Notes: generated from the sequence alone by a model not told the origin. Shown: positions 24,550-58,690, numbered from the stretch's first letter. The stretch: 64,000 bases of DNA from an uncultured Peptococcaceae bacterium (GCA_964372025.1 CAYJPF010000001.1:21696-85695), one strand, 5' to 3'. A program made the numbers and translations.

Positions 24550-24567
24550 ACCTTATCACCCTTTCTG

Positions 24568-25464: not shown

Positions 25465-25482
25465 TGAATTCTCACTTTCTTT

Positions 25483-28005: not shown

Positions 28006-28007
28006 AT

Positions 28008-41980: not shown

Positions 41981-42615
41981 TTTGTTTACCTCCTAAACGT
42001 TCAAATTTGAACGTTTTTATTCTTTTAACTCCTTAAAACGTTGCAATTTCAACGTTTCTAACTTATATTTAATATTATAATTGAAATAAATATAAATTGC
42101 AATACCTTTTTAAATTTTTTTTAGTAAAATTTACTTTTTTTTTATAGCTCTAAAAACACTACTAGAAAACACTACTAGAAAACACATTTTAAAACACTCT
42201 AAAAACATACTCTCATACTAGCATTAAATACATTAAATTCAATGCTTAGAGCTTAAAGCAGAGAGTTTTAAAATGTGATTAAAATTATCTCTGTATTGTA
42301 AGTGTAACAATAGTTTTTACTAGTAATAAAAACACTGTATGCATATATACAGATATACAGAGAAAAATCCAGCAAAGTTGTATACACTATTCTAAATATT
42401 CTGACAATTCAAAATATTCTGAAAATTTCGAAAAATCAGACATCTCAATTTGGTAAAATTTACCAATTCTACCAATATTTCCCATATATAACATAATATC
42501 CCTATATTCCCAATATTTTCCATGCACCACATATTCTACCATATATTCCATATATTGCCAATTGACCAGATCTGGTAAAATTTACCAATTCTCAATAATA
42601 AAAAAAATAAGATTT

Positions 42616-42897
42616 TTACACCTTATTTTTACTAATTACTAAATTATAGTAACTATCTTCAGCAGGAATCCATAATTCCTTGCTATCATTTATGAAGGCT
42701 CTAACGTCCTTCTCTTTTATACTATAGCAACTCATATCGCTATAACTAGCATCATCAGATACTATATTTACAAGCTCTAAAGCCTTTTCAAGTTCTTTAA
42801 AGCCTACTTGATAGCTGTCATCTTCAGCTATCATATTTAGTTTTACATTAAATATATTATCTAATATATTTAATTGTAATTGTAATTTTAAATCCAT
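42616..42897 (-). CDS. hypothetical protein
   Basis: 93-aa ORF whose start overlaps the upstream stop. Confidence 0.35.
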   Translation of the reverse strand: MDLKLQLQLNILDNIFNVKLNMIAEDDSYQVGFKELEKALELVNIVSDDASYSDMSCYSIKEKDVRAFINDSKELWIPAEDSYYNLVISKNKV

Positions 42898-43337
42898 TAT
42901 AACACCTCTTGAGGGTAGTACCCTCCATTATCCCTATTAAAATGATATAGCGTTATTGTTATACCATTTTTTCTAGTAGCATTTAATACTGCTACTAATG
43001 CCACAGTTAACCCTGTGACATACAGGTTTATATGGGCATTCCCATATTTCGACAAGCTTTCTTCAGCTTGCTCTTGCAAACCCTTTGTATCCAAAGGATT
43101 TACATTTTGAGGGAATAAATATTCGCTTATTCCCTCTATTTCATGTCGACTCTCACATAAGCCGACATTTACTTCCTCTACTACTGGAGGAACTGGAGAC
43201 ATATCTCCAATTTCCAACCAATAGTTACAATAATCAGCTAGATGGCAATTCCAACAATTGCCATTTGCAGAAGTCTGTTGACCTCTACAGAAATTATTGT
43301 TATTGTTATTGTTATTGTTATTGTTATTGTTTCTCAT
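42897..43337 (-). CDS. hypothetical protein with N-terminal poly-Asn tract
   Basis: RBS ACGGAGG. (ATTGTT)x7 at 43293-43334 encodes N13. A 5'UTR hairpin abuts the SD. Confidence 0.45.
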   Translation of the reverse strand: MRNNNNNNNNNNNNNFCRGQQTSANGNCWNCHLADYCNYWLEIGDMSPVPPVVEEVNVGLCESRHEIEGISEYLFPQNVNPLDTKGLQEQAEESLSKYGNAHINLYVTGLTVALVAVLNATRKNGITITLYHFNRDNGGYYPQEVL

Positions 43338-43676
43338 TTTTCTACCTCCGTATGTTGGAACATTGCAATTCCAACGTTTTTAATTTTAACTTGTATATAG
43401 AATATCACGATTAAAAACATAAGTCAATAGCTTTTTTAAAATTTTTTAATTTATTTTAAAAATATCTTTTATATCCTCCGCATCCTCCGCATTTTATGTA
43501 AAATTTACTAAAATTTTACATAAAATAAAAACATATCCTTATGGTAAAATTTACCATATCACACCATCCTCCGCATCAAAGATAGCTTTGGTAAATTTTA
43601 CCATAAGGAGTAAAATTTACCAATTAAATAATTTTTGGTAAAATTTACCAATTCTACCAAAAATAAATTTTCTGAA

Positions 43677-43829
43677 AATTCAGAATTGTCAGAATATTTG
43701 AAAAATTCAGAATATTTCAATATTTCAGAATCGTTGCAATATTCAGAATATTCAGAATACACAAAGTTTACAGAAAATTCAGAATTGTCTGATAATTCAC
43801 AATATTCACAATATTCACAATATTCAGTT
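43677..43829. repeat. tandem array of 17 x 9-bp repeats (consensus NATTCAGAA)
   Basis: Perfect 9-bp register across 153 bp, immediately followed by two copies of the palindrome TGTTTCACGTGAAACA (43834, 43871). Confidence 0.8.
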
Positions 43830-43981
43830 ATAATGTTTCACGTGAAACACTCCTATAATATTTTAAAAAATGTTTCACGTGAAACACTGTGTAATGGTAA
43901 AATTTACCATTATAATCCTATATGTCAACATCTACCATATTTACTAAATTTTACCATATTTAACATAAAAAAGAAAAAGAG

Positions 43982-44176
43982 CTATATAGCTCTTAATCTT
44001 TTCATAATAGGTTTATGATAATTTGATTTATACCATAATCCCATTCTTAGAGCCTCTGCAAGCTCTGCATTGCCATAACAATGCCACTCTGTTAAGGCTT
44101 GACTAGCACTTGCTAGCCATAAGAGCTTTTTATTGAAGCTCTTTTTATTTAATTTTATTGTATTTTTTCTTCTCAT
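43982..44176 (-). CDS. hypothetical protein
   Basis: 64-aa ORF with RBS AGGAGGATG, third gene of a small operon. Terminator hairpin AGAGCTATATAGCTCT follows. Confidence 0.4.
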   Translation of the reverse strand: MRRKNTIKLNKKSFNKKLLWLASASQALTEWHCYGNAELAEALRMGLWYKSNYHKPIMKRLRAI

Positions 44177-44188
44177 TTTTTCATCCTC

Positions 44189-44422
44189 CTATTGTACTCT
44201 TATTATCTCATTTAAATTTATTTTTCTACCATGTGATATAAAGTATATATCACCATTGCTTTTATATCTGAGCTCAGCTCTTGCTTTCCTTGATACTGTA
44301 TCTCCTGAAACATATTGATATGTAATATAATTATCATCTATATCAATAACTCCAAGCCCTCCAGTATTGCTTAAATGCATCGTCCCTATATAATTATATT
44401 TTTTATACTTTATTGTTTTCAT
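44189..44422 (-). CDS. hypothetical protein
   Basis: 77-aa ORF with RBS TAGGAGGTA. Confidence 0.45.
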   Translation of the reverse strand: MKTIKYKKYNYIGTMHLSNTGGLGVIDIDDNYITYQYVSGDTVSRKARAELRYKSNGDIYFISHGRKINLNEIIRVQ

Positions 44423-44433
44423 CTTTATACCTC

Positions 44434-44562
44434 CTAATATATAGTAAACATTTTACACGTTTTACTATTCTCATAAAGCTTTATACATAAAGCTTCACAT
44501 ATGAAATTACCTTCTCTTGTCTCTGTGCAATAAGCACAGTCTAAACAACCTATACTATACAT
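44434..44562 (-). CDS. Cys-rich 42-aa peptide (not in the ORF track)
   Basis: MYSIGCLDCAYCTETREGNFICEALCIKLYENSKTCKMFTIY with RBS GGAGAGGT. It is preceded by a TTGCAA-17-TATAAT promoter and a TTGCGAGGGTCGCAA hairpin/operator in the leader. Confidence 0.35.
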   Translation of the reverse strand: MYSIGCLDCAYCTETREGNFICEALCIKLYENSKTCKMFTIY

Positions 44563-44900
44563 TCTTACCTCTCCTATCTGTTGCGACCCTCGCAACCCTT
44601 GAAATACTAACGTTTTATTTAACGTCTTGACTTATTATAGCATATCTAAAATAGCATTGCAAGCTTTTTTTAAAAAATTTTTAAACTTTTTTAAATTTAT
44701 TTTTTATACCACGATTTATATTATATATCAGAATTTTCTGAAAATTCAAAACATTTGCACAACTTCCAATCCATACACTTGGTAAAATTTACCAATCCTC
44801 CGCATCCTCCGCCATAAATGCTTTATGGTAAAATTTACTATTTAAACCATATATTTTAAAATAAATAAATATGGTAAATTTTACCATAAAGCATTTTTTG

Positions 44901-44999
44901 TTTTCAGAAATTTCAGAATTGTCAGAAAATTCAGAATTTACAAAAATTTCAGAATTGTTAGAATTGTCAGAATATTTAAAAAATTCAGAATATTCTTAC
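44901..44999. repeat. tandem array of 11 x 9-bp repeats (NTTTCAGAA family)
   Basis: Same repeat family and register as the 43.7-kb array. It ends in TGTTTCACGTGAAACA at 45004. Confidence 0.75.
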
Positions 45000-45117
45000 T
45001 ATATGTTTCACGTGAAACACCCTTATATTCTCACACTCTCGCATTGCCTACCTATGGTAAAATTTACCATAAAAATTTCATAAAAAAGAGATGGCAATTT
45101 TTACCATCTCTTATATT

Positions 45118-45251
45118 TCTTATATCATTGATTCACATATGCTTCCAATAATTGGTATTCCAAATAATACCATAAATGTTAGAAATGTCGCCATCCCTCC
45201 GTCCATTTCAGATTTCTTATTACTTCTTTTATATCTTATTGGTTTGCTCAT
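45118..45251 (-). CDS. hypothetical small membrane protein (not in the ORF track)
   Basis: About 43-aa ORF with strong RBS AAGGAGGTGG and a TAATG coupling to the upstream gene. One TM helix (FLTFMVLFGIPIIG). Confidence 0.35.
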
Positions 45252-45421
45252 TATTTCCACCTCCTTAAAGCTTCTTCTCTATCTAATTCGCTCATGATGA
45301 GTTCCTCTTCAGTTATCATCATGTTTTTTAAAACTTGTTTTCTCTCTCTGTCTAGCTCTCTGAACCTCTTTTTTAAATCGCTCTCACTCCATTTTTTAGT
45401 TTTTTTAATTTCTTTACTCAT
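45251..45421 (-). CDS. hypothetical small basic coiled-coil protein
   Basis: Start reassigned to MSKEIKKTKK (RBS AGAGAGGTAAA). The 5'UTR carries the hairpin GTTGAGATATTCGAATCTCAAC. Confidence 0.4.
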   Translation of the reverse strand: MSKEIKKTKKWSESDLKKRFRELDRERKQVLKNMMITEEELIMSELDREEALRRWK

Positions 45422-45718
45422 TTTTTTACCTCTCTTTTTTCTGTTGAGATATTCGAATCTCAACGTTTCTTTGTTTTAACCTACCTATATATTATCACAC
45501 CTTTATATATATGTCAACACTTTTTTTAAATTTATTTTTTATTTTTTTAATGTTGTAAAATTCTAAATTTTCTGAAAATTTAGAAAATTCGATCAACTCC
45601 AATCGCTCTACTTGGTAAAATTTACCATAACTTGCATCTCTGATATTTAGGTAAAATTTACCAATACCATTCCAATAAAAAATGGGAATATTTTACAATT
45701 CCCATTTTATACCATATT

Positions 45719-46288
45719 TTACAGATTTACATAATCATATATATTTTTTATTAAATCACTTCCAAATATTCCCATACATTTTTCATGTGTTTTTTTCATA
45801 TCTTGGTAAGCTCCTATTCCTCTCTTATATTGCTTTACATTTTCAGTATATCCAAATTCCTCAATAAACATATCTTCGTTATTATATTCTATAATGTTTG
45901 AGTCTGTCAATATGCACCATATGCAATCAAATAATAGTTTAATTCTATCAAATTTAAGGTCTCTTTTATTGTCTCTTACGTTTATTCCACTACCTGTATT
46001 ATATTTAAATTCATGTCCATTTATAATAAATAAATGTCTATTATGTCCCCATTTTTCGCCATTCTCATCATTATCAAAGTAGCCTATATTAATATATTTA
46101 ATTGTATCTAACTTAGAAAATATCTCATAAAATTTCTTTTCACTATCTATATAATCTTTATAATATTCGTATAAATTTACTATACATTCTCTAGCTTCAT
46201 CTTGAAGCTCTTCGCACCAGTTAGCAAAATCACTTTTTCTGTTCCATTCCCAATTTTTCATAGTGTTCTCATAAGTTTCAATTCTCAT
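45719..46288 (-). CDS. hypothetical protein
   Basis: 189-aa ORF with the cassette promoter TTGACA-17-TATTCT, leader AAGTTAAAGTTAA, a 5'UTR hairpin and RBS AGAGAGGT. Confidence 0.45.
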   Translation of the reverse strand: MRIETYENTMKNWEWNRKSDFANWCEELQDEARECIVNLYEYYKDYIDSEKKFYEIFSKLDTIKYINIGYFDNDENGEKWGHNRHLFIINGHEFKYNTGSGINVRDNKRDLKFDRIKLLFDCIWCILTDSNIIEYNNEDMFIEEFGYTENVKQYKRGIGAYQDMKKTHEKCMGIFGSDLIKNIYDYVNL

Positions 46289-46551
46289 TTTTTACCTCTC
46301 TTCTGTGCAAACTCTGTGTTTGCAACGTTTTAACTTTAACTTGTATATAGAATATCATATCTTGACCCATATGTCAATACTTTTTTTAATGTTGTAAAAT
46401 TCTAAATTTTCTGAAAATTCAGAAAATTCGATCAATTAAAAAATATAAATATGGTAAAATTTACCAATCCTCCGCACCCTCCGCCATATGGTAAAATTTA
46501 CTAAAAAAGGAAATATATATAATTGGTAAATTTTACCATATGGCGGAGGAA

Positions 46552-46803
46552 ATTGTCTGAATTGTCAAACAATTCAGAACTGTCGAAATTTTCAGAATCT
46601 TTTGAATTGTCAGACAATTCAAAATTGTCAGAATATTTCCAATATTCTCAATTATTATAATTGACTGAATTTTCAGACAATTCAGAATATTCCCAATATT
46701 CTTAATTGCCCATATACACCAAATATTCTGAATATTCTTAATTGACCGACTTTTCTGAATTGTCAGAATATTTGCAATATTTTTAATTATTATAATATTC
46801 TTA
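46552..46803. repeat. tandem array of 28 x 9-bp repeats (consensus ATTNTCAGA)
   Basis: 252 bp in perfect 9-bp register, ending in TGTTTCACGTGAAACA at 46809. Confidence 0.8.
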
Positions 46804-46838
46804 CTATATGTTTCACGTGAAACAAAATATTGCAAGTG

Positions 46839-47291
46839 TTATTTAACACTTACAATATTTTCCATTTTTACTGTTATTACACTTAATTCACTGCTATTAG
46901 AAAATTCACTTTTTAAGCACAATATTTCAGCTTCAGCCTTTGTAATCTCAACACCATCTTTATAATATGTTGTCGTCGCTTTACTTTTAGGGCTTGTTGT
47001 CACTCTTAAATATAAGTTTTCTTTATGTTCTATTATATATGGAAAGTGCTTCCACTGTCCCCACGGTAGAGCTTGAACTATTGCTTTTCCATCTGCTCCT
47101 ACTCCGTTTCTTTCTTTAGTGTCTTTCATATTAGCATAATCTACACCAAATCTACAAGATGTCATAATTGTTATTTTCTCAACCTTATTGTCTATTCCTT
47201 TTCTTGTCTTAAGTTGCTTATTCCATTTTACTGTTGTAAAAGCTCCTTTTTTTAAACTCTCTACTTGTTTTTTAACTTCTCCATAAATCAT
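46839..47291 (-). CDS. hypothetical protein
   Basis: Start reassigned to MIYGEVKK (RBS GAGAGGTAACA). The ORF-track N-terminal extension ..NYKLKLRI.. is a translation of the conserved leader. Confidence 0.45.
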   Translation of the reverse strand: MIYGEVKKQVESLKKGAFTTVKWNKQLKTRKGIDNKVEKITIMTSCRFGVDYANMKDTKERNGVGADGKAIVQALPWGQWKHFPYIIEHKENLYLRVTTSPKSKATTTYYKDGVEITKAEAEILCLKSEFSNSSELSVITVKMENIVSVK

Positions 47292-47522
47292 ATTGTTACC
47301 TCTCTTTTTAATTCTTAACTTTAACTTATAATTCATTATAGCACATATAAAAGCATCTGTCAATACTTTTTTTAAAAAATTTTTAAATTTATTTAAAAAA
47401 TATATTATGTAAAATTTACCAAATTTTTACAGTAAAATAAATATGGTAAAATTTACCTTATGTGCATCATTCTTCTCTATGGTAAAATTTACCACAACAA
47501 AAAAAAAAAAAAAAAGAAGAGC

Positions 47523-47747
47523 TTAAAGCTCTTCTAAATCATCAAATCCATTCCATACGTCCTCAAGCACTATTTCATTATATTCATTTATTATGATGTG
47601 TGGTGCTTCATCTCCATAATATTCATGTTCTAATAAAAATACTTTGCCATATTCTTTATAATCCATCTCGTCTACCACATACCACGTCCCCTTGTGTCCC
47701 TCTACTCTGATATTGTCACTCTTTGCAGTAATTTTCATATTGCTCAT
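47523..47747 (-). CDS. hypothetical small acidic protein
   Basis: 74-aa ORF with cassette promoter and leader. A strong terminator (hairpin plus T17) follows. Confidence 0.45.
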   Translation of the reverse strand: MSNMKITAKSDNIRVEGHKGTWYVVDEMDYKEYGKVFLLEHEYYGDEAPHIIINEYNEIVLEDVWNGFDDLEEL

Positions 47748-47791
47748 TTTGTTACCTCTCTTATTTATTATTTAACTTTAACTTATAATTT

Positions 47792-47820
47792 ATTATACCA
47801 TATGTATTTTAATCTGTCAA
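47792..47820 (-). promoter_or_regulatory. representative cassette promoter (TTGACA-17-TATAAT)
   Basis: -35 at 47820-47815 and -10 at 47797-47792 on the minus strand, followed by leader AAGTTAAAGTTAA (47784-47772) and an RBS. The same layout recurs at least 15 times between 43.4 and 59.4 kb. Confidence 0.55.
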
Positions 47821-47974
47821 TAGTTTTTTCAAAATAATTTCAGAAAAATTTCAGAAATAATAATGGTAAAATTTACCTGATGAAAATTTCAGAAGTGCGA
47901 ACAAGCTAGGTAAAATTTACCATAAAAAATTCAGAATAAAAAATGGGAATATTTTACAATTCCCATTTTTTATA

Positions 47975-48241
47975 TTATCTTATTTTTCTATCTAGCACTA
48001 GCACACAATTTTTCTTAAGCTCTGGTGCATACTGACTTTGAGATATATATAATATTGTATTAGGATATTCCAATATTATATTTTTGTCCTCATCTGTCAA
48101 TGGTCTACTTATTTCAAACATTGTTCCATATATTTTCTTTCCATCTCTTTTTATATGTGTTCTGTAAAAATTATTATATGCATTGTTATTGCAGTCTCTT
48201 AATAATTTATAAACTCCATAATCATCTAATTTCTTTCTCAT
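47975..48241 (-). CDS. hypothetical protein
   Basis: Start reassigned to MRKKLDD (RBS GAGAGGTAAA). Confidence 0.4.
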   Translation of the reverse strand: MRKKLDDYGVYKLLRDCNNNAYNNFYRTHIKRDGKKIYGTMFEISRPLTDEDKNIILEYPNTILYISQSQYAPELKKNCVLVLDRKIR

Positions 48242-48314
48242 TTTATTTACCTCTCTTTTATTTAACTTTAACTTATATATAGAGTATATCACATACATTT
48301 TATATTGTCAAGCA

Positions 48315-48914
48315 TTATTTTAATTTAAATTTATTTAATTTGTCTTTAGCTATTTTAAATTCATTCTCTTTTATTTTGACCTCTTCAATTGCAGATACTA
48401 ATTCTTCAACATATTTATCAATACTAGATATGTATTCATAATCTTTATAATTGGCATTTACAAACTTTTTATTTTCAAAGTCGATAAACACATTATCTTC
48501 AATAAAAGCATCTCCATTTTCAAGTTCAATACTTCCCATATATAAACTCCCATAATAAATTGAAAATCCATCATCAGACAAGTTTATTTTAAAGTAATGT
48601 AAGAAAAATTCTATTTCACTTTTCAACATATGTAAATTATATTCGTTAGCACGTTTGCAATAATATTTCTCTATTACCTTTATAATATCATTATTGCAAT
48701 ATTTTAAAATAAAATATACTATATTATTTTTAATAACTAAATTCTTCTTTTTTTGAGATAGAGGCATAGTAGAGTCACATCCTCCATACTCCATATATGT
48801 ATCTTCCAAATATACTAAATTGCTTCTTAAAGTCTCCAAATCTTTTATTTCTTGTCGAGTTCTATCCATAAAATCGTTTATGCTTCTTTCTAAAATGTTA
48901 AATTCACTATTCAT
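48315..48914 (-). CDS. hypothetical protein
   Basis: 199-aa ORF with RBS GAGAGGTAAGA and cassette promoter. Confidence 0.45.
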   Translation of the reverse strand: MNSEFNILERSINDFMDRTRQEIKDLETLRSNLVYLEDTYMEYGGCDSTMPLSQKKKNLVIKNNIVYFILKYCNNDIIKVIEKYYCKRANEYNLHMLKSEIEFFLHYFKINLSDDGFSIYYGSLYMGSIELENGDAFIEDNVFIDFENKKFVNANYKDYEYISSIDKYVEELVSAIEEVKIKENEFKIAKDKLNKFKLK

Positions 48915-49098
48915 ATTCTTACCTCTCTTTTTATTTAGTAATAACTTTTATCTTACTTATATATTACCACACATATATAATAAAGTCAAGCATTATTTTT
49001 AAAATTAAAATGTTTAAATATTCAGACAATTCAAAATATTCAAACAGATCATACACTAGGTAAAATTTACCATATATACATAAAAAGAGAAAAAGAGC

Positions 49099-49347
49099 CT
49101 ATAGCTCTTCTTCGTCCTCTTCTTCGTCCTCACACTTATTATATAATTCCATAATATCAGCTAGTTCAAACCACACAAAGTCGTTTATCTCTGTTTCTGT
49201 GCATGCCTCTTTGCACATATATTCCTCTATTATTTCTTGAGCCTCTTGTTCTCTGTCTTGAAATCTTATTTCTTCGGCTACATCTTGCCCACCACTCCAA
49301 AATTCAAAACTATCAAATTTAAATTCATATTCTTCTCTTACTATCAT
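49099..49347 (-). CDS. hypothetical highly acidic protein (DNA-mimic-like composition)
   Basis: 82 aa ending EDEEEDEEEL, with cassette promoter. Confidence 0.4.
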   Translation of the reverse strand: MIVREEYEFKFDSFEFWSGGQDVAEEIRFQDREQEAQEIIEEYMCKEACTETEINDFVWFELADIMELYNKCEDEEEDEEEL

Positions 49348-49437
49348 TTTATACCTCTCCTTTGGTTATCTAACTTTAACTTATAATTCATTATAACATA
49401 TACATATTACTTTGTCAATAGTTATTTTAAAAATATT

Positions 49438-49650
49438 TTAATAAATTGAAACCCCTTCATAATAATATAATAGTTTATTATTTATACTGAAATTATCATT
49501 TGATTCTTTACTATGCACATATACACTGCCACACATATCAAACCTCTTAACTTTATATCCTAGCATTTTCAATATTGCCATTCCCATTTCTTCAGGTGAA
49601 TATCCACAATTTTTTGCTAATCTCTCTAAATTTTTTGTTGTTATATTCAT
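49438..49650 (-). CDS. hypothetical protein
   Basis: 70-aa ORF with cassette promoter. Confidence 0.4.
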   Translation of the reverse strand: MNITTKNLERLAKNCGYSPEEMGMAILKMLGYKVKRFDMCGSVYVHSKESNDNFSINNKLLYYYEGVSIY

Positions 49651-49874
49651 CTCATACCTCTCTTTTCATTATTTAACTTTAACTTATATATATAATACCA
49701 TACATTTATATATTTGTCAATAGTTATTTTAAAATAAATCAAAGATATTCTCCTTCCACATACTAGGTAAAATTTACCATATCCCATAATAAAAAAAAGA
49801 ACACACATTCGTGTGTCCTATATTTTACTAGAGACAATGAGAGAGGTAATCGCATTGCTCTAGCCTATTTAGCA

Positions 49875-50144
49875 TTATTTTACAAAATTTTTATATACTC
49901 TTGCAAACTCATTAGCTGATAATCTAGCTTCTTTTCTGCCACCATCAATCCAGTTTAAATGTTTGCCTGTAGTAACTCCCCATATATTTTGATGTACATA
50001 TAATTGCCCACCAACTTTAAATGCTACCAATGTTTTGTATGAGAAATAAAATTCTCTTCCTTTTGCATCTGTGAAAACCAATGTGTGGCTTCCATAATTA
50101 TCACTTGAGTAATTTCCATAGTTTCTATAATTTACATTCATCAT
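49875..50144 (-). CDS. hypothetical protein
   Basis: 89-aa ORF with cassette promoter. Confidence 0.4.
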   Translation of the reverse strand: MMNVNYRNYGNYSSDNYGSHTLVFTDAKGREFYFSYKTLVAFKVGGQLYVHQNIWGVTTGKHLNWIDGGRKEARLSANEFARVYKNFVK

Positions 50145-50247
50145 ATCTTTTTCTCCTTTATTTGTTAACCTCTCAACAACTTATAATTCATTATACCACA
50201 TATATTTTACTTTGTCAATAGTTTTTTTAAAATATTTTTAATTTATT

Positions 50248-50562
50248 TTACCATCCTATATATATTTTAGGATATACAATAATTTCCATGTTCTCATCAA
50301 ATTCAGCTCTTTTAATCATCATAACTTCAAATCCTTCATCTGTCAATACATCTATAATTGAATAGTGGCAAGTATCACTGTCTTTTATATGCGAGAATTC
50401 ATATTCTATATATCCTATATTCTCACCATGTATGTTTGCAGTTATTTTATTTATGATATCGCTTATAGTCATATCAATTATAGTCTTACGTTTCATCATA
50501 GAGGGTGAATTAGCCTCTATATCTTTTATTAGGTTATATATATCTCCTTTTGCTTTTGCCAT
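50248..50562 (-). CDS. hypothetical protein
   Basis: 104-aa ORF with cassette promoter. Confidence 0.4.
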   Translation of the reverse strand: MAKAKGDIYNLIKDIEANSPSMMKRKTIIDMTISDIINKITANIHGENIGYIEYEFSHIKDSDTCHYSIIDVLTDEGFEVMMIKRAEFDENMEIIVYPKIYIGW

Positions 50563-50729
50563 CGTTATTACCTCTCTTTCTTAACTTTAACTTACATATA
50601 TAATATCATACATTTATATATTTGTCAATAGTTATTTTAAAATAAATTAAAAATATTTTTCCTCTATCTACTAGGTAAAATTTACCATATATAATATAAA
50701 AAGAGAGAGCATATTGCTCTCCCATATTT

Positions 50730-51293
50730 TTACATATTTCTTTCATTCTCAATGATAGCATCCATTGCTTCTCTATATCCTTTTGACCAATCTTCTGTGT
50801 CAAGTATATCCAGAGAATCTCCATATTTTTTAGTATATAATTTCCTTTGCAACATATAATCCACATATGAATAATGAGCTTCTTGAGTAACCGATTCGAC
50901 GTGTCTCATTATATTTGTTTCTAGTGCATTCAATACTGCAAAAGCTTTTTCTTTATCAATTGTCAAAAATATACTATCTTCTGCCATATATTCGCAATTT
51001 TCTACAATAACATCAAAATAAGATATATCATTTTCGTCTTTTAAATCATACTCTTCCATTGCTTTTTCCTGTATTTCGTGTTTAGTAATAAACATTGTTC
51101 TCATTACTACATCATACAATATTTCAGTCTCAAGTGTTTCTATATTTTCAGAATTACATAATGGGCAAAATTCTTTTTTGCTATTCCTACTTACAAATAC
51201 ATCTTTTAAATATCTCCCACAATCTCTGCATCTTATTACTTCTTTGTCCTCATCATAGAACTCATGTTTTATTAAATCAATATTATTTGTCAT
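50730..51293 (-). CDS. hypothetical zinc-ribbon protein
   Basis: CRDCGRYL...CPLC motifs, with cassette promoter. Confidence 0.45.
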   Translation of the reverse strand: MTNNIDLIKHEFYDEDKEVIRCRDCGRYLKDVFVSRNSKKEFCPLCNSENIETLETEILYDVVMRTMFITKHEIQEKAMEEYDLKDENDISYFDVIVENCEYMAEDSIFLTIDKEKAFAVLNALETNIMRHVESVTQEAHYSYVDYMLQRKLYTKKYGDSLDILDTEDWSKGYREAMDAIIENERNM

Positions 51294-51374
51294 TTTACCT
51301 CTCCTTATTTTAATTGCTTAACTTTAACTTATAATTCATTATAGCATATATATTTTACTTTGTCAATAGATATT

Positions 51375-51974
51375 TTAAAATAATTTGCCATCTTCATAAA
51401 ATTCATATTCGCTACAGTCACACATATCTTGCATTTCTTCTTCATCAATATTATGTAGAAAGTCATATCCATCTTTCTCATATTTTTTCTCTAAATCTTC
51501 CATATAGTCCATTGCACTGTTAAAGAATTTTACCAATACATCTTCATTGATATTTTTTATATCATTATATTCTAATTCATATATCACATTTTTTACCCAT
51601 TCATCACTTTTTTTATGTATAAATTTTACACTATAAGCATAACGAGTGTTGGCAGATAACATAATTGCATCATTATCATCATATTTAGCATAGAATTTAA
51701 TCGCTCTTTTCTCTTTATCTGTCATATCTAATTTATCAACAATATCACATACATCTAATGTGCCATAAATATTAAGTCCATCGCCTTGACAATATCCTAG
51801 CGAATATTGAGTATGCAATTCAGAGTTAGGAAAATCTTCTTTTAAATCACACTTTATATTATCACTAAATATGTCATTTCTTATTTCGCAATCTAAAAAA
51901 TCTCGTTTCACTCTCTCCTTTGCTTCTTCAGATAATTCTTCATACTTGTAAATTTTTATCTCTTCAATTCTCAT
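51375..51974 (-). CDS. hypothetical protein
   Basis: Start reassigned to MRIEEIKIY (RBS GAGAGAGGTATAAA). Confidence 0.45.
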   Translation of the reverse strand: MRIEEIKIYKYEELSEEAKERVKRDFLDCEIRNDIFSDNIKCDLKEDFPNSELHTQYSLGYCQGDGLNIYGTLDVCDIVDKLDMTDKEKRAIKFYAKYDDNDAIMLSANTRYAYSVKFIHKKSDEWVKNVIYELEYNDIKNINEDVLVKFFNSAMDYMEDLEKKYEKDGYDFLHNIDEEEMQDMCDCSEYEFYEDGKLF

Positions 51975-52076
51975 TTTATACCTCTCTCTTTCAACTCTTA
52001 ACTTTAACTTATAATTCATTATAGCATATATTTTTTACTTTGTCAATAGTTATTTTAAAATAAATTAAAAATATTT

Positions 52077-52352
52077 TTAGTGATATGTATATTGCAATTC
52101 ATAATCATTTAATATTTCACTTATTTCTTTATCAGTGAATTCTCTATCAGAGTTTTCTAGTAGTGACCTTGCACAGTCCTCACAGAATTTTCCACTCATA
52201 TCTAAATATTCACAGTCATCTCCATCATAATATATAGAATCTTCAAATAATACACTATCGCATCTATCACACACCTCTATACAATATGGGTCTTTACTTC
52301 CACAGTTTCTGCATGTCTCACAGTCTAAGCAGTCATTTCTTTGCACTAACAT
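52077..52352 (-). CDS. hypothetical Cys-rich protein
   Basis: 91 aa with 10 Cys (CLDCETCRNCG...). Confidence 0.4.
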   Translation of the reverse strand: MLVQRNDCLDCETCRNCGSKDPYCIEVCDRCDSVLFEDSIYYDGDDCEYLDMSGKFCEDCARSLLENSDREFTDKEISEILNDYELQYTYH

Positions 52353-52624
52353 ATTTTTTCTCCTTCCTTATATTCCTTAAGATATTTGATACTCATTCTC
52401 AAGTGATATATTCTATTATCATGTTCTTCTTCAGCAGATAATTCATCTATCCAAGATTGCAGAGCATCTATAGTTTCTTCTATTCCTTCTACATCCATCA
52501 AATATCCACTCATATCACAGTATGGACAGTGATTTTCTCCTATCTCATCATCTCTTCCATCATATTTAACGAGTATTTCACCCTCATCCATTGTGTTTTC
52601 ACACCAGTTACATTTAATTCTCAT
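52346..52624 (-). CDS. hypothetical zinc-ribbon protein
   Basis: CNWCEN...CPYCD, with cassette promoter. Confidence 0.4.
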   Translation of the reverse strand: MRIKCNWCENTMDEGEILVKYDGRDDEIGENHCPYCDMSGYLMDVEGIEETIDALQSWIDELSAEEEHDNRIYHLRMSIKYLKEYKEGEKIC

Positions 52625-53347
52625 ATTATTTATTCCTCTCTTTCAATATAAATAACTTTAACTTACATATATAATATCATAGTTAAAGCTATTTGTCAAT
52701 AGGTATTTTAAAATATTTATTATTGGAAAAATTTGGTAGGATCGGTCATATTGGTAAAATTTACCTTTATAATACAATAGAGTGCAAAAGGTTGCAAAAT
52801 CGCTTTAGCGGTTTTAGCAAACCTAGGAATTGACGTACAAAATGAGTAGAAAATATTTATATTTTCTACATTTTGTAGTCAAGGAGTGGAGCTCAAGAGC
52901 CTTATGGAATATGAATATTTCATAAGGTATAAGGCTTAACAGCCCTATTCTGCCAAATAGAGAAAGTGTAAACACTTTCTTGCTATTTGGTGCGAATATT
53001 CCCCCCTTTGCCAAAACTGCTGAAGCAGTTTCGTCAACCATATTCAACTGGTTTCAATATTTCTACTTAATTTGTATTGAAAATTAGAATTTTATAAATG
53101 CATAAAATTTAAAAACATATGATTATGACAAAGAAATATTTTGATTTAGAAAATTGTTATTGTTGAGAATTCCAAAATACAAAATTCGAAAAATCAAAAA
53201 TAAATGTTGAAATTTCAACGCTTAAACCCCCTCGCTCTAAATATAATGTACTAAAAAATTAGAATTTTTAGCGTAAGCAAAACACGAGGGAGAAGCGTGA
53301 GCAAAAAACGGACAGCGACTGCTCTTGATTGTTGTTTAAATTTGTAT

Positions 53348-54709
53348 TTATTCTTCAATATTTTCATCTAAATCCTCATACATATTTTCATATGATTGAG
53401 ATTCAAGTATAACTTCTTCATTTAACCAACTATGTAGCAAATTCCTCATTCTCTTAGATGGAATATATACATTTATATTATTGTATTCTCTAATAGCACT
53501 TCTAAATATAAATTGCAACATTTCAGATAGAGCGAATAAATCATAATTGATTTTTACTTTATGAAATAAAAAAAATTGTTTTACATAAGGATTAGGAAAT
53601 CTGTTAGCGAAATAAACCACACAAGTCCTATCCTTATACATATTAGTTCCTCTTGTATTTAGAGCGACAAATCCTTTTGTATATCCTTTCCCACTATATA
53701 ACTTTTTATATTCCTTATATACAGTCCATATTACTTTATTAGAATGAGATTTAGAAATTTTTTGAACATAATTCTCTATATTATTTTTAATTAACTTAGT
53801 CACCTTATCATTCTTAGACCAAGTATCAAACCATGTTTTTGAGAGAGCTGTCTCAAATTCTCCTATATCATTCAATTTGCTATTTTCATGAATTGAAATA
53901 AGTGGCTTATATCTTTTTATATCATATTTTTGAGGAACATCTGTTAGGCAATATCTCCCACCTTCTTTTTTTACATACAGATAATTATATTCTACATTAT
54001 GAAAATCAAAATAATATTTCTGAATTTGGGCATCAAACATATATGTCAATATATATACACGTCTAAAGGCTTTAAATATTGAAACTGGAAAATTCCATGC
54101 GATTGTAGAATTATTATTTCCATAAGCATACAGTGATTCTATTTCACACATTTTTTTGTATTTATTATATTCTCCACTATATGATTTATCTGTCCACACT
54201 ATCAATCCATCTTTTTCTATTTTTGCGTGTTTAGAAAATATATTTTGTCTGTCTGATTTACTTATAGCTGTTGTTCCCACTACATCTGCAACTTCATCCA
54301 TAACCAATATATATCGATTTAAAAATGCAAGCTGTACCATTTCTGCATCGAAATATTGGAATAAAGCATGTGTAGTTACAATATTCTTGCCTTGATTTAT
54401 TAGTTCTTTTATATTCTCTGTCTTAGTAGATACTGCATCTGATGGTTCAATAAAATGTTTGTCTTTGCAACTCTCTTTGATTCTTTTGACCTCATCAAGA
54501 TATGGGGTAACATACATATACCTATATACATCATCTGACATTTTGTCCTCATTTATAAAGTTTATCAAAGAACTTGTTTTCCCTTCCCCCATAGGAGCAT
54601 CAACTACATTAACTTTATAATGTTTGTAATTATCACTTTCAACAAACATATCTACTAATTCATCAAATTCTTCATTGGTTATTATTTTACTCATTATAAT
54701 GTCTCCCAT
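53348..54709 (-). CDS. superfamily-2 helicase-like P-loop ATPase
   Basis: Walker A DAPMGEGKTS, Walker B LVMDEVAD (DExx) and a motif VI-like QFIFRSAIRE. Confidence 0.4.
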   Translation of the reverse strand: MGDIIMSKIITNEEFDELVDMFVESDNYKHYKVNVVDAPMGEGKTSSLINFINEDKMSDDVYRYMYVTPYLDEVKRIKESCKDKHFIEPSDAVSTKTENIKELINQGKNIVTTHALFQYFDAEMVQLAFLNRYILVMDEVADVVGTTAISKSDRQNIFSKHAKIEKDGLIVWTDKSYSGEYNKYKKMCEIESLYAYGNNNSTIAWNFPVSIFKAFRRVYILTYMFDAQIQKYYFDFHNVEYNYLYVKKEGGRYCLTDVPQKYDIKRYKPLISIHENSKLNDIGEFETALSKTWFDTWSKNDKVTKLIKNNIENYVQKISKSHSNKVIWTVYKEYKKLYSGKGYTKGFVALNTRGTNMYKDRTCVVYFANRFPNPYVKQFFLFHKVKINYDLFALSEMLQFIFRSAIREYNNINVYIPSKRMRNLLHSWLNEEVILESQSYENMYEDLDENIEE

Positions 54710-55350
54710 ACTTTACATTCTTTGTTAATTTTCTCATAACATTCTTTCCCATATCCTCTTCTAATACTCTCACTATCTGTTAATCTCCTACCACAGTTTC
54801 CACATTTAGCAACATATGTCATTGTGATATTTCTACTTAGCACATTTCTTGATAATTGCGTAAGAGCTGATAATAGTAATCCTATTTCATAATCACTCTT
54901 TTCATAATTTCCTGATTTTCCTTTAGAAAATCCAAAAGAAGAATTGTCATTTACAAATAAACAACCTCCGTATAAAGGGTCGTCAAAAGGCTCTTTTTCA
55001 TCTAACAATGTAACAAAATACATATTCCTAGTTGGCTCAGGTTTGGTTAGGAAATATCTTATTTCTCTTGTCTGTTCCTTATCTTGCTGTATTATAAATT
55101 CAGATTTTGTTGAAAGTATAAACTCTAGCATATCTGCATATGTATCAACATTTACGTTTGGATATGTAGGTTCATCATTCAAAGGTGGGTGCATATCATA
55201 TCTTGGTTTACTTTCAGATAAATTTAAAACTTCATATTGTGGTGAAAGTAAATTTAAATTATGTAGCTCTCCTATATTAGTATCTGCTAGGTCTGAAATC
55301 TCAGCATTTGATTGAGATACCACATCTATTATTTCAATTGTTGTATTCAT
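54694..55350 (-). CDS. hypothetical protein with C-terminal zinc ribbon (partner of the helicase-like gene)
   Basis: 218 aa overlapping the helicase-like gene start by 16 nt. CGNCGRRL...C motifs. Confidence 0.4.
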   Translation of the reverse strand: MNTTIEIIDVVSQSNAEISDLADTNIGELHNLNLLSPQYEVLNLSESKPRYDMHPPLNDEPTYPNVNVDTYADMLEFILSTKSEFIIQQDKEQTREIRYFLTKPEPTRNMYFVTLLDEKEPFDDPLYGGCLFVNDNSSFGFSKGKSGNYEKSDYEIGLLLSALTQLSRNVLSRNITMTYVAKCGNCGRRLTDSESIRRGYGKECYEKINKECKVWETL

Positions 55351-55476
55351 ATTGTTCTCCTTTGTTTTAATTTATTATTTATGTATTCATTATATCATAT
55401 TTTATTGGTGGTGTCAAGCATTTTATTTAGCTTGATCTTGGTAAAATTTACCATATGAATATAAAAAAGAGAGGCA

Positions 55477-55977
55477 TTAAAATGCCTCTTTAATCGCCTC
55501 TATAAGTGGCTCTAAACCTGTGGAATATCTCCATATTCCTGAATTGTCTGAATATTCTGCATTTCCATTATATTCACATTCTTCTATAAAGAACTCTGTG
55601 ATTACATAATGCTTATGATATGGGCAGTACCAATATGTTGACCTTAATTGTGCTACCACCTCTACTGCTAAACTATATGTGGTATATGACCCCATTATTT
55701 CCCCACCATCTGTTTCAGTAGTTATCCCTGTTTTGATAGAGTGTCTCTCCTTGAATGGAATTTCTACAGTAGACTTCTTTATTTCATATGTTTTGCATTT
55801 GAATATATAATTGTCCTCTGCAACTTCTGCTCCATAGCATTCATCTATGTAAGTCTTTAAAAGCTCCATAGCTTGCTCTATATCTTCTGCTTCTACTATT
55901 TGAGAATCCCATTGAGACTCCAATCCATTATTTAATTTAAATTGAATTCTAAATGCGTTTACTTGTTTATGTTTCAT
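55477..55977 (-). CDS. hypothetical protein
   Basis: 166-aa ORF with cassette promoter. A terminator hairpin AGAGGCATTTTAATGCCTCT plus a T-run follows. Confidence 0.45.
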   Translation of the reverse strand: MKHKQVNAFRIQFKLNNGLESQWDSQIVEAEDIEQAMELLKTYIDECYGAEVAEDNYIFKCKTYEIKKSTVEIPFKERHSIKTGITTETDGGEIMGSYTTYSLAVEVVAQLRSTYWYCPYHKHYVITEFFIEECEYNGNAEYSDNSGIWRYSTGLEPLIEAIKEAF

Positions 55978-56073
55978 ATTACACCTCTCTCTTTCACTTA
56001 TTTAACTTTAACTTATAATTTATTATAGCACAGGTTGAATAGATTGTCAATAGTTTTTTAGAAATTTTTTATT

Positions 56074-56475
56074 TTAATTCAAATATTCATTCAACATATT
56101 CAATATTTCTGTCTCATATTGCATAGTTGGAATTACAATCTCTTCCATTGTTACAGTTAGTAAACTCCCATATTCAGCTCCAACCAGTGCTTGTTCATAT
56201 GGTGTAGAGATAGGCATTGATGCTATTTCATATATTTTGTTTTCACCATAGTCCATATAGTCAAGAGTTGAAGTAAGATTGTTGTTCACTTCATCACGTA
56301 TAGTGTTCAATAGTTCATCAGCCTCAATTCTTAGGTCTTTCTGCACTTGGACTTCTCTCTGTAGATTTCCTATGGTGATATCTTTCCCCATAGGGTTTGT
56401 AATAGCGATTGTTATTATTGCTGATACCATTACTGATACTAATATAATTGCGATTGTTTTAATTTGTTTTTTCAT
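56074..56475 (-). CDS. hypothetical membrane-anchored protein
   Basis: N-terminal TM helix IAIILVSVMVSAIITIAIT. Confidence 0.4.
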   Translation of the reverse strand: MKKQIKTIAIILVSVMVSAIITIAITNPMGKDITIGNLQREVQVQKDLRIEADELLNTIRDEVNNNLTSTLDYMDYGENKIYEIASMPISTPYEQALVGAEYGSLLTVTMEEIVIPTMQYETEILNMLNEYLN

Positions 56476-56521
56476 GTTTATTCCTCCTTATTTGTTGTTT
56501 AGTTTTAACTTATAATTTAAT

Positions 56522-56749
56522 TTAAAATAAAGGTTCATCAGGGAACATATATGTTCCATTGCTTTTAAATGATTGATTATGGAAATCTATTCTTTTTGCC
56601 ATTTCTTTAATTGTTTTAACTGGCTCAATAGTGATAGGATTTTTCATTTGTTTTATTTTAGATAATAAATTATCATTATCACTACATCTCAATCCATTTG
56701 CAAAATATGTTCCATTATCCTCATGTACTACCACATAGTTAAATTTCAT
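56522..56749 (-). CDS. hypothetical protein
   Basis: Start reassigned to MKFNYVVVHED (RBS AGGAGGAATAAAT). Confidence 0.4.
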   Translation of the reverse strand: MKFNYVVVHEDNGTYFANGLRCSDNDNLLSKIKQMKNPITIEPVKTIKEMAKRIDFHNQSFKSNGTYMFPDEPLF

Positions 56750-56953
56750 ATTTATTCCTCCTTGTTTGCTGTTTAACTTTAACTTATAATTTATTATAGC
56801 ACAGGTCAGAATATATGTCAAGCATTTATTTTATAAATTTATAATTTATTTTTCAAATATCTATATGGTAAAATTTACTAAGATCTGTAATGAAAAAGAC
56901 ACCCATTACAGGTGTCTCTCTCGAAAGGAATAATAACAACTTATGTAAACAGA

Positions 56954-57877
56954 TTAGCTTGCTAATCTGAAATACTCTTGAGCTTTGCCAACCCACTCAT
57001 TACCTTTAACAAGATTAAAGAAACGATTCTCACTGGCTGTAGATGTTTGTCTTAATGGCTCACTATGACTAGCAAGGTCAGTTACTGCCATATATGCTCC
57101 ATATTGTGTTCCTTTGAATGGTTGAATATCTACTTTATTATTGTATACAGATATTATCTCATTCCTAAGTTTAGCTACATTCTCTTCTTTGCGAGAGCTT
57201 GCATCTGTTGGAGTAGGGAATAAGAATTCAGAGAAATTGACTATATTGTCTAATTTAGTATCTGCTAATTTCTCCATCTCATTCTCAAACTTACTGATGT
57301 ATTTGTTAGCTTTAAGAATGCTATCGTGAGCTAGTTGCAGTCTGTTCATAACTTGAGCAGTATGTTTAATTGACCATGAGAAGTTGTCGTGCTTCATCAT
57401 ATATGTCATTCCATTGGCACACCATTGACGCAACATAACTACATTTAGTTTGATACTGCCTGAACCATCAAATGAATTCTCAAAGTATATATATGGGGTG
57501 ATATCATCACCTAGAATATTGATGTCTTCTAGCTCTCCCAGTATCCATACTTTCTTAGAATCTGCTGATGCGTTAGCCATATGAAACTTCATACCCTCTT
57601 CAACCATACCATCTATAAATGAGAATGCTTCTTGGTTGTTGATTATATGGTATCTGCTACCAACTATACCCAACACTTGTTCTGTATCAGAACGCATATT
57701 TGCGATGTAGTTAGGAACTTTATTCCCATTTACTATAACATCCTTTTGCTCTACTGTGAAGTTTAGGTTTGAGATATCTAATACCTCTTGTAAAGATTTT
57801 GCTTCTTTACAGTCAACTCCTAGTCCTCTCCACGGTGTGTTAACATTTACGTTTTTAAATTTAGTTACATTATTCAT
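56954..57877 (-). CDS. DUF932-family (phage/plasmid-like) protein
   Basis: ENSFDGSGSIKLNVVMLRQWCANG matches the DUF932 signature as recalled (NS.DGS.S ... R..C.NG). 307 aa is typical for the family. Confidence 0.45.
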   Translation of the reverse strand: MNNVTKFKNVNVNTPWRGLGVDCKEAKSLQEVLDISNLNFTVEQKDVIVNGNKVPNYIANMRSDTEQVLGIVGSRYHIINNQEAFSFIDGMVEEGMKFHMANASADSKKVWILGELEDINILGDDITPYIYFENSFDGSGSIKLNVVMLRQWCANGMTYMMKHDNFSWSIKHTAQVMNRLQLAHDSILKANKYISKFENEMEKLADTKLDNIVNFSEFLFPTPTDASSRKEENVAKLRNEIISVYNNKVDIQPFKGTQYGAYMAVTDLASHSEPLRQTSTASENRFFNLVKGNEWVGKAQEYFRLAS

Positions 57878-57965
57878 ATTTCTACCTCTCCCTTTCAGTT
57901 ACTTTACTTTAACTTATAATTTATTATAGCATAGATTTTCATGATTGTCAAGCATTTATTTTATT

Positions 57966-58358
57966 TTAATTTAAAATATTTTTACCTTCAATAGATAAGA
58001 GTCTGTCAAACTCTTTGACACAGTGAGTTAGCACTTCATCAAATAATGTATAGAAATATGTAAATGCATTAGCAAGCTCCATATTGCCATCTTCTACCAT
58101 TGTATTATATGTTTGCTCTGCATCTGACAACAGGTCTTCTATATCGTTTGCATTTATTTCACCATATCCATTTGATTGAGTATGCTCTTTGAATATACTG
58201 TATAGATTACGTTGATATTCATTTATAACATGTAATGAATGAACTAGCTCTATATTATCTTCTCTTGTATTTACGATGTCTCCTACATTTGGAATTGTAG
58301 GCTCTTTGCTTTCTGATATTATCTCTTCCCACGATTTTATTATTCTATTTGTTTGCAT
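57966..58358 (-). CDS. hypothetical protein
   Basis: 130-aa ORF with cassette promoter. Confidence 0.4.
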   Translation of the reverse strand: MQTNRIIKSWEEIISESKEPTIPNVGDIVNTREDNIELVHSLHVINEYQRNLYSIFKEHTQSNGYGEINANDIEDLLSDAEQTYNTMVEDGNMELANAFTYFYTLFDEVLTHCVKEFDRLLSIEGKNILN

Positions 58359-58690
58359 ATTTGTTCCTCCTTATTTGTTGTTAACTTTAACTTGTGATAT
58401 AAGTATAGCACAGGTTTAATAATATGTCAATACTTTTTTTATTTTAATTTAAAATATTTTTCATTTAGAAAAATGGATCATATTGGGTAAATTTTACCAA
58501 TAGGGTATAAAGACAAAACCACCAGTAATAATACTGATGGCTTTATCTTAAGCTTAATCTTCATAATGGTTTGGAGTGGACACTAATCACTCCTTCATGC
58601 AAGATACGGAGGTGTAAGGAGAAAGGTGTATGAAAACCTTTGTAAGTTAAAGTGTGCCTTGCATGAAGCAATGACTAGCATTGCAATGGG

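Follow-up and report, generated by a model that had tools for sequence, protein, structure and literature searches.

A 13-bp palindrome in the early region of an SPbeta-like phage follows intrinsic terminators at a constant distance and may be the operator of an AbrB-type protein

The DNA analyzed here is a 64,000-nucleotide (nt) stretch from an uncultured Peptococcaceae bacterium (GCA_964372025.1 CAYJPF010000001.1:21696-85695), referred to below as the window; it covers 64 kb of a phage on a source contig of 140,306 bp, of which 76 kb lie outside. Its sequence marks it as a Firmicute phage, a distant SPbeta relative of low G+C content (~29% in the window). A late minus-strand block (1-29.7 kb) is followed by a block of small plus-strand genes (30.2-41.2 kb) and by a region at 41.3-64 kb with ~44 small minus-strand genes and ~25 near-consensus extended -10 promoters (TTGACA-17-TGnTATAAT). 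This early region, which encodes a YonV_C helicase, also contains the element that is the subject of this work, a 13-bp palindrome that recurs in intergenic spacers.

Counting both strands, the window holds 23 exact copies of the 13-mer GGTAAAATTTACC, as against 0.00 in 100 dinucleotide-preserving shuffles. Its consensus is the palindrome GGTAAA(A/T)TTTACC, which with its flanks becomes the 15-mer T-GGTAAA-W-TTTACC-A, and the 11-nt core, GTAAAWTTTAC, occurs 30 times where 0.1 would be expected. Allowing ≤2 mismatches, we obtained 33 matches; those at 608 and 45093 (in a terminator stem) were set aside as unrelated, leaving 31 credible copies that all map within 42123-58498, between gene calls in a stretch of minus-strand genes, and are distributed over 14 intergenic spacers. 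The copies are irregularly spaced (19 bp to 2.7 kb) with genes intervening, some form pairs 35-47 bp apart, and the DNA flanking them has diverged. These counts bear out an earlier note on this DNA, which had described at least 25 repeats, all intergenic and several of them paired; chance alone would give none. Its 28 coordinates are all real, with 43533 corrected to 43543 and a few others moved by 1-2 nt, and the degenerate copies at 42123, 43497, and 43943 were absent from its list. The note had also denied that the repeats are a clustered regularly interspaced short palindromic repeat (CRISPR) array, and we agree: the regular 23-50 bp direct repeats with unique spacers of such an array are not found here, where repeats are 13 bp, palindromic, and irregularly spaced, with genes between them.

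The copies are placed in a regular manner relative to intrinsic terminators. In 11 of the 12 spacers that contain a terminator, the first copy starts 15-21 nt past the last base of the stem, an arrangement that never arose when the first copy was placed at random 100,000 times in these spacers. Following the transcribed minus strand, these copies and the minus-strand terminators before them are as follows. The copy at 58486-58498 (exact, central A) starts 20 nt past the stem of the terminator at 58519-58540 and 55 nt upstream of a -35 element at 58430; that at 56867-56879 (AGTAAATTTTACC) starts 17 nt past the stem at 56897-56917 and 45 nt upstream of the -35 at 56821; and that at 55440-55452 (exact) starts 15 nt past the stem at 55468-55491 and 22 nt upstream of the -35 at 55417. 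Three further exact copies follow, at 50674-50686 (16 nt past the stem at 50703-50723, 45 nt upstream of the -35 at 50628), 49766-49778 (19 nt past the stem at 49798-49819, 45 nt upstream of the -35 at 49720), and 49059-49071 (17 nt past the stem at 49089-49113, 69 nt upstream of a TTGACT -35 at 48989). Further along lie the exact copies at 47909-47921 (19 nt past the stem at 47941-47968), 47481-47493 (21 nt past the stem at 47515-47535), 45650-45662 (18 nt past the stem at 45681-45706), and 45056-45068 (18 nt past the stem at 45087-45111, which itself holds the motif-like GGTAAAAATTGCC), and finally the copy GGTAAAATTTAGT with two mismatches at 43943-43955 (21 nt past the stem at 43977-43994).

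In the longer spacers, additional copies precede the next promoter and form groups of 2-5. Exact copies other than those listed above lie at 52753-52765 (53 nt upstream of the -35 at 52699, where a 723-bp non-coding stretch ends), 47865-47877 (44 nt upstream of the -35 at 47820), 47445-47457, 46525-46537 (central A), 46453-46465 (75 nt upstream of the -35 at 46377), 45614-45626 (96 nt upstream of the -35 at 45517), 44873-44885 (central A), 44781-44793 (118 nt upstream of the -35 at 44662), 43896-43908 (immediately upstream of two parS sites), 43637-43649, 43590-43602 (central A on the transcribed strand), 43543-43555, 42574-42586, and 42452-42464. Copies with one mismatch are GGTAAATTTTACA at 47408-47420 (44 nt upstream of the -35 at 47363), AGTAAATTTTACC at 46490-46502 and 44827-44839, and GGTAAATTTTACT at 43609-43621; those with two mismatches are AGTAAATTTTACA at 43497-43509 (70 nt upstream of the -35 at 43426) and, on the transcribed minus strand, AGTAAATTTTACT at 42123-42135 (20 nt upstream of the -35 at 42102). 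The copies at 42452 and 43637 are each preceded by TGGTA-GAAT, which adds an extra TGGNA half-site.

The relation to promoters is looser. A minus-strand promoter follows every copy, as the earlier note had said; its further statement that the copies always precede the -35 element by 45-110 bp does not hold, as the gaps range from 12 to >500 nt and 13 of the 31 copies fall within 44-110 nt. We found no fixed position relative to promoters, and the site centers (~-54, -62, -64, -86.5 in five cases, -95, -97, -112, and further upstream) rule out fixed helical phasing with the promoters; a secondary, weaker regularity is a gap of 44-45 nt to the -35 in five spacers. Nor could we uphold a regulon of more than 20 independently regulated promoters, given that the motif lies in 14 spacers and that eight strong, near-consensus early promoters (59411, 57951, 56050, 52046, 51366, 50218, 49418, and 48311) have no copy. 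These eight directly follow the preceding gene with no terminator between, and the motif was likewise not found at the promoters at 59-64 kb or at plus-strand promoters. All terminator-bearing spacers contain the motif, compared to none of the eight promoter-only spacers. The same rule recurs in an otherwise unrelated phage: on L009, a 12-kb metagenomic phage contig with 22 dispersed copies, a variant of the motif lies 17-19 nt past 7 of 11 terminators. No DNA homology connects L009 with the window, and the two have only one small acidic protein in common. As their placement follows the terminators, the sites mark transcription units bounded by terminators and not individual promoters.

Each interval bounded by motif copies forms a full transcription unit, with a promoter, 1-4 small genes, and a terminator. 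Such an organization could also arise if the 13-mer had no dedicated binder and were part of a duplicated terminator-spacer-promoter module, for which the PeSL cassettes of T4 offer a parallel, or a short homology or recombination junction at which whole units could be shuffled, lost, or gained. Some spacers are indeed duplicated (49673-49803 and 50581-50711 are 86% identical), and the central base of the motif has an orientation bias, being T on the transcribed strand in 26 of the 31 copies and A in 5 (p = 2e-4). Duplication, however, does not readily account for a 13-mer that is invariant while the spacers flanking it are mostly unrelated and the terminator stems share no sequence with one another, or for the same core and terminator spacing in L009, and elsewhere the core forms tandem arrays. 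Moreover, 13 bp is short for homologous recombination, and we know of no site-specific recombinase that would fit the 1-nt asymmetric center. We therefore regard an explanation without a binder as very improbable.

The conservation of the motif has the form expected for a site on duplex DNA. The information profile is symmetric over 13-15 bp, with positions 2-6 and 8-11 invariant, and drops to background beyond -1 and +14. Such symmetry, with conservation that ends at the motif edges, points to the site of a dimeric protein and not to an RNA element; it would be the signature of a symmetric protein dimer, as the earlier note had also proposed, and we consider it very probable that the 13-mer is a specific protein-binding site. 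The note had judged the palindrome a poor RNA hairpin, and the calculated energies (-1.8 to -3 kcal/mol) are no better than those of shuffles. In addition, the sites lie between terminator and promoter and thus mostly in untranscribed DNA. On energy and position, we reject a reading of the motif as an RNA hairpin or terminator. A literature search with the motif sequence returned primers only.

A directional nucleic acid signal would be another way to read the orientation bias and the constant position straight after terminators, the more so since one gene of the window specifies a YonO-like RNA polymerase of the two-barrel, single-subunit type (25483-28005, minus strand; Pfam RdRP 5e-21), for which the 13-mer might be a promoter or a pause or termination element; alternatively, it might form a hairpin in read-through RNA. 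Yet the motif is a near-perfect palindrome without asymmetric flanks, the hairpin is marginal, and the late minus-strand structural module, the expected target of this polymerase, lacks the motif. Tandem arrays of up to 15 copies elsewhere are also unlike promoters. Finally, the central base is mixed in orientation in L009, and for this reason we do not take orientation as essential. A signal of this kind seems to us barely credible.

With some reservation, we favor the reading that the 13-mer is the operator of one symmetric protein that marks and controls each early unit, and that this protein is of the AbrB type; taken as a whole, this statement is tentative. In this model, a dimeric or dimer-of-dimers DNA-binding protein would occupy the 13-mer sites. 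A site 15-21 nt behind the stem would lie ~8-14 nt beyond the RNA release point, so that an RNA polymerase with its active center in the U-tract would touch the bound protein. The protein could then serve as roadblock and insulator, backing up termination and halting read-through into the next unit, while proteins on neighboring copies might occlude or modulate the upstream part of the following promoter. In this way, a single factor could switch ~14 early units (~30 small genes) together.

As for the binder, we found no regulator of the Xre/Cro type, which the earlier note had proposed, in the window. Two other window proteins were considered and dismissed, the HU-like protein (21033-21314) and a LAGLIDADG protein (22498-23454), as nothing connects either to the site. 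A slight preference goes to an AbrB-type swapped-hairpin protein, which might be a phage protein encoded at 35912-36073, a host AbrB, or both, because the site has the form of an idealized inverted bipartite operator, TGGNA-N5-TNCCA. Genome-wide footprinting in Bacillus subtilis defined a high-affinity AbrB site as two TGGNA motifs in any orientation, separated by a 4-5 bp AT-rich spacer, and found that long AbrB binding regions consist of many TGGNA motifs (PMC3738160). With its flanks, the motif reads TGGTA-AATTT-TACCA: T precedes it in 27 of the 31 copies (position -1) and A follows it in 22 (position +14), all 31 have AATTT or AAATT between the halves, in line with the AT-rich spacer of AbrB sites, and both halves are TGGTA/TACCA in 14 copies, with TAGTA in five; in L009, the outer G is often lost. 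Further half-sites lie nearby. Between the palindromes at 42452 and 42574, a run of ~9 TGGNA pentamers, 4-5 bp apart, extends over 42466-42560 on the transcribed minus strand, compared to an expectation of ~0.7 per 160 nt (estimated from base composition). Direct bipartite TGGNA sites number 12 with a 5-bp spacer and 7 with a 4-bp spacer, where ~1 of each would be expected, and similar TGGCA repeats adjoin the palindromes of L009.

The plus-strand gene at 35912-36073 encodes a 53-residue homologue of the AbrB/SpoVT N-terminal domain (Pfam MazE_antitoxin, 5e-12; matches in PDB to the N-terminal domains of SpoVT, 4e-8, AbrB, 9e-7, and Abh, 2e-5). In our alignment, R9, R16, R24, and K25 of the phage protein correspond to R8, R15, R23, and R24 of AbrB, which we take to be the residues of AbrB that contact DNA. 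A search of 5.8 billion proteins with this protein returned the query itself as the sole match; genes like it are present in phages of Clostridium, Bacillus, and Paenibacillus. The suggestion in the earlier note that this protein is the binder thus gains independent support from the TGGNA-type site and from a true N-domain homologue.

The 13-mer is found far beyond this phage. We searched IMG/VR, JGI metagenomes, and GTDB genomes for two exact 13-mers within 15-45 nt (loci L001-L052) and found tandem arrays of 2-15 copies in 5 IMG/VR, 41 metagenome, and 6 genome loci with G+C contents of 27-68%, in taxa that include Selenomonas, Arsenicibacter, Luteolibacter, and Ruminococcus. From their layout, these arrays look like initiator-iteron origins. 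In 23 of the 52 loci, the array is accompanied by an open reading frame (ORF) for an HTH_36-like winged-helix protein (profile E ≤ 0.01), which ends just upstream of the array where inspected. These proteins match Pfam HTH_36 (up to 4e-8), Phage_rep_O, or DnaD_N and have a conserved recognition helix, T/S-E/D-K-T/S, and by BLASTP they form several unrelated families. In L011, L013, and L017, the initiator-like gene itself contains the repeats, which fall within its linker, keep the reading frame, and encode VNFT or VKFT; the lambda origin likewise lies inside gene O. On the 239-kb IMG/VR contig of L003, the array-side winged-helix gene (3421-3852) is broken solely by in-frame TAG codons, which suggests TAG reassignment in this jumbo phage.

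These arrays raise the possibility that the binder is a winged-helix initiator or regulator (HTH_36, phage RepO, or DnaD-N-like) encoded in the 76 kb outside the window, and that the dispersed copies are secondary initiator sites that act in titration, handcuffing, or transcriptional control. Conservation weighted toward the center, GTAAAWTTTAC, would suit such a protein better than AbrB. Copies in L001/L005, L003, and L009 adjoin a pure A+T stretch, and GAGGGTGGGGGTGG together with a pure-AT element is common to L009 and the window. Against this, array-protein profile, signature regex, and Pfam searches found no HTH_36-like ORF in the 64-kb window or L009, no motif copy lies within 12 kb of the origin-like AT-rich element (29871-30137), and the copies in the window are scattered over 16 kb, in 14 spacers, and tied to terminators rather than tandem. 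The outer flanking pair also varies by family (C..G, G..C, A..T, or T..A), which implies that the binders need not be the same. We consider a winged-helix binder as serious a candidate as one of the AbrB type, if somewhat less probable.

Several observations weigh against an AbrB-type operator of early units, the reading that we prefer. Conservation is lowest at the outer T and G and highest in the core GTAAAWTTTAC, which is the opposite of the AbrB logo; the trend is strongest in L009, where AGTAAA, AATAAA, and CGTAAA variants dominate. Neither the N of TGGNA nor the spacer varies among the 31 copies, so that the binder would recognize more of the site than AbrB is known to do. The phage AbrB-like protein lacks the C-terminal tetramerization domain of AbrB. 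Outside the window, none of the 52 array loci has an AbrB-like ORF near the 13-mer, the signature regex included, whereas winged-helix genes do adjoin it; and phiCp-D, with the closest phage AbrB-like gene, has zero such sites. The roadblock effect is a prediction from geometry. Finally, the motif is absent from the sampled relatives L053 (YonV helicase) and L082-L084 (YonV helicase and YonO polymerase). From this absence and that of an array in positions 1-100,000 of SPbeta, it follows that the motif is lineage-specific within SPbeta-like phages, as would be expected for a regulator that co-evolves with its sites. A search of IMG/VR for the motif followed by 20-50 nt and TTGACA gave 24 single, chance-level matches and zero relatives with dispersed copies.

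The three longest early spacers, in which motif copies bracket other repeats, hold candidate sites of global regulators of Firmicutes hosts, a setting that also suits an AbrB-type binder of the motif. All four copies of a perfect parS consensus, TGTTTCACGTGAAACA, lie there (43834-43849, 43871-43886, 45004-45019, and 46809-46824; 0.04 expected), and they suggest recruitment of host ParB/Spo0J, in the style of spore entrapment by phi29, or plasmid-like segregation. Arrays of AATATTCTG/ACAATTCTG units with a 9-bp period cover 43660-43850, 44899-45020, and 46550-46830 and also occur at 42395-42427, 44732, 45566, and 46405. CodY boxes, AATTTTCWGAAAATT, are present in the 9-bp arrays as 4 perfect and 17 near-perfect copies, compared to 3.3 expected. 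CodY binds overlapping boxes with a 9-nt offset cooperatively (PMC10415144). Because the array offset equals that of overlapping CodY sites, the arrays look like long CodY oligomerization tracts. Direct repeats of the form GCGGAGGA(T)GCGGAGGA, also with a 9-bp offset, lie between motif copies at 43480-43580, 44795-44815, and 46467-46487; the three largest spacers contain no other G-rich elements.

The clustering of AbrB-type, CodY, and parS consensus sites in the same spacers could mean that the motif, the CodY arrays, and the parS sites act together as a decoy that titrates host AbrB, CodY, and ParB/Spo0J, or couples early expression to growth and sporulation. The agreement between cooperative CodY binding and the 9-bp period points in this direction, and phi29 is said to tie early expression to the state of the host via Spo0A boxes and parS (as Meijer and colleagues reportedly described in 2005). 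Titration, on the other hand, needs no fixed distance to terminators, invariance at all 13 positions exceeds what AbrB needs, and the identical 13-mer occurs in elements of phyla without AbrB. We judge a decoy function improbable.

In a more far-reaching version of the operator reading, the roadblock 15-21 nt behind terminators would be switchable, the same regions would double as AbrB, CodY, and ParB decoys, and the 13-mer would belong to a common binding code, reused across several phyla by mobile elements as origin iterons, centromere-like arrays, and terminator-coupled operators. We think this combination unlikely. Switchable termination has a parallel in the "pause and release" terminators of eukaryotes, which are bound by Reb1 or TTF-I. 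To our knowledge, an operator at a constant distance behind intrinsic terminators, here in two unrelated phages, has not been described before. If the operator reading is correct, bacterial viruses would have a protein-assisted, switchable form of termination or insulation, and phage early transcription could be linked to the host regulators AbrB, CodY, and ParB. The motif also offers a testable entry to early-gene control in the poorly studied clostridial-type SPbeta-like phages with a YonO polymerase, and a single 13-bp palindrome recurs as a presumed protein-binding site in mobile elements of 27-68% G+C.

The phage itself is remote from those known. A megablast search with 42-50 kb against INPHARED gave zero nucleotide matches, terminase and portal are merely 28-37% identical to those of known phages, and neither the YonV-like helicase nor the AbrB-like protein has close relatives in IMG/VR. 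The late block encodes the portal, terminase, YonG-like protein, YonJ-like exonuclease, HU-like protein (the YonN counterpart), ClpP (21361-22005), a PIN/PhoH protein (23731-24549), the YonO-like polymerase, and a tyrosine recombinase, and it matches the SPbeta order yonE, yonF, yonG, yonJ, yonN, yonO, with yomM among tail genes. Its SPbeta-like module at 14014-29694 also contains a dNMP kinase, NT5C, and RecU. The tyrosine recombinase (2827-3894, minus strand) lies in the tail-gene region, is yomM-like, matches the Int protein of Tn1549, and keeps GARISEL and HAFRH intact; the recombinase and the parS sites hint at a temperate or plasmid-prophage lifestyle. The terminase large subunit (15612-18557; 981 residues) has split PHROG matches (residues 101-512 and 449-959), the protein set that includes it has Hom_end, Hom_end_hint, and LAGLIDADG_3 matches, and it probably carries an intein. 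The LAGLIDADG/WhiA-like protein at 22498-23454 (318 residues) is separate from it.

In the element at 29871-30137, a perfect 24-bp inverted repeat, GAGGGTGGGGGTGGGGACGGGTGG, encloses ~220 bp of ~90% A+T. The element lies at the divergence of the late and plus-strand modules, coincides with a change of sign in the GC skew, and is likely a replication origin; L009 has a comparable GGAGGGTGGGGGTGGAGGG plus pure-AT element at ~5095-5220. In the early region, a conserved 5' leader, AAGTTAAAGTTAA, begins a few bases past the -10 element of ~15 promoters (for example, 47785-47797, 49375-49388, 50583-50596, and 56004-56017), and in some leaders it is followed by a hairpin, AACGTTG...CAACG (43352-43377 and 45442-45465). 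The ~500 bp at 52830-53347, from the YonV-like helicase gene to the next promoter, contain GC-richer segments and no convincing ORF and may encode a non-coding RNA; an Rfam search of the window, including this segment and the early leaders, gave zero matches. The early protein encoded at 42897-43337 on the minus strand starts with MR followed by 13 asparagines from (AAC AAT)n repeats, a possibly slippage-prone tract.

Dispersed operators of a single phage regulator are already known from the SPbeta repeated element (SPBRE) and its repressor MrpR, from stoperators, and from the CIRs of phiC31. Among other repeated sites, those of iteron origins of the lambda O/ori type (HTH_36/Phage_rep_O) form arrays of the identical 13-mer in metagenomic phage and plasmid loci; in the window, by contrast, no tandem array lies by an initiator gene, and the AT-rich element is 12 kb from the nearest copy. 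OB, the operator of KorB (a ParB-family protein) of RK2, is also a 13-bp palindrome with a central base, is present in 12 dispersed copies, and serves a global regulator. Like the motif, it lies at variable distances from promoters (from adjacent to >1 kb), but its sequence is different and its sites are not tied to terminators. The same 13-mer array does lie in or next to a ParB-like gene in the unrelated loci L017 and L048/L050, and a Pfam search found no ParBc match among the 98 window proteins. The stoperators of mycobacteriophage L5 and other cluster A phages are, by an account attributed to Brown and colleagues (1997, EMBO J), said to be ~30 sites of 13 bp at which the gp71 repressor blocks elongating RNA polymerase. 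As in the window (31 sites, 26 of them in one orientation), tens of sites lie in short intergenic regions with a preferred orientation. Stoperators, however, are asymmetric and bound by a monomeric helix-turn-helix repressor, whereas the motif is palindromic with a symmetric profile; nor are they tied to intrinsic terminators, and they act in lysogeny of actinobacterial phages.

The AbrB operators of B. subtilis likewise combine two TGGNA motifs, which in the window are inverted and complete in 14 of the 31 copies, with a 5-bp AT-rich spacer and further TGGNA motifs nearby at a 9-10 bp period (PMC3738160, PMC3025583). Host AbrB sites are degenerate, whereas the sites in the window do not vary at the 13 central positions and are least conserved at the outer T and G. 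Closest in kind and in phage lineage is the SPBRE of SPbeta, a 134-kb phage in which ~10 intergenic or promoter regions of early genes carry the element and are bound by the master repressor MrpR/YopR (PMC10516654). The two phages have in common the gene order portal, terminase, YonG-like protein, YonJ-like exonuclease, HU-like YonN, ClpP, and YonO polymerase, continued by a divergent early region, the YonV helicase, and a YomM-like recombinase. They differ in the element itself: positions 1-100,000 of SPbeta contain a single 1-mismatch match to the window motif and no array, and the SPbeta early promoter regions share another element, ACAAATAATATGTAT. No MrpR-like inactive recombinase was found in the window, whose sole Phage_integrase protein (2827-3894) keeps R...HxxR and has no MrpR match. 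The window motif is present in ~3 times more copies than SPBRE, and SPBRE lies at promoters, while the window sites lie upstream of early promoters at a variable distance and behind terminators at a constant one, with eight promoters lacking a site. What SPBRE and the window motif share is a short conserved element repeated near early genes, through which one regulator silences these genes together in SPbeta and might do so here.

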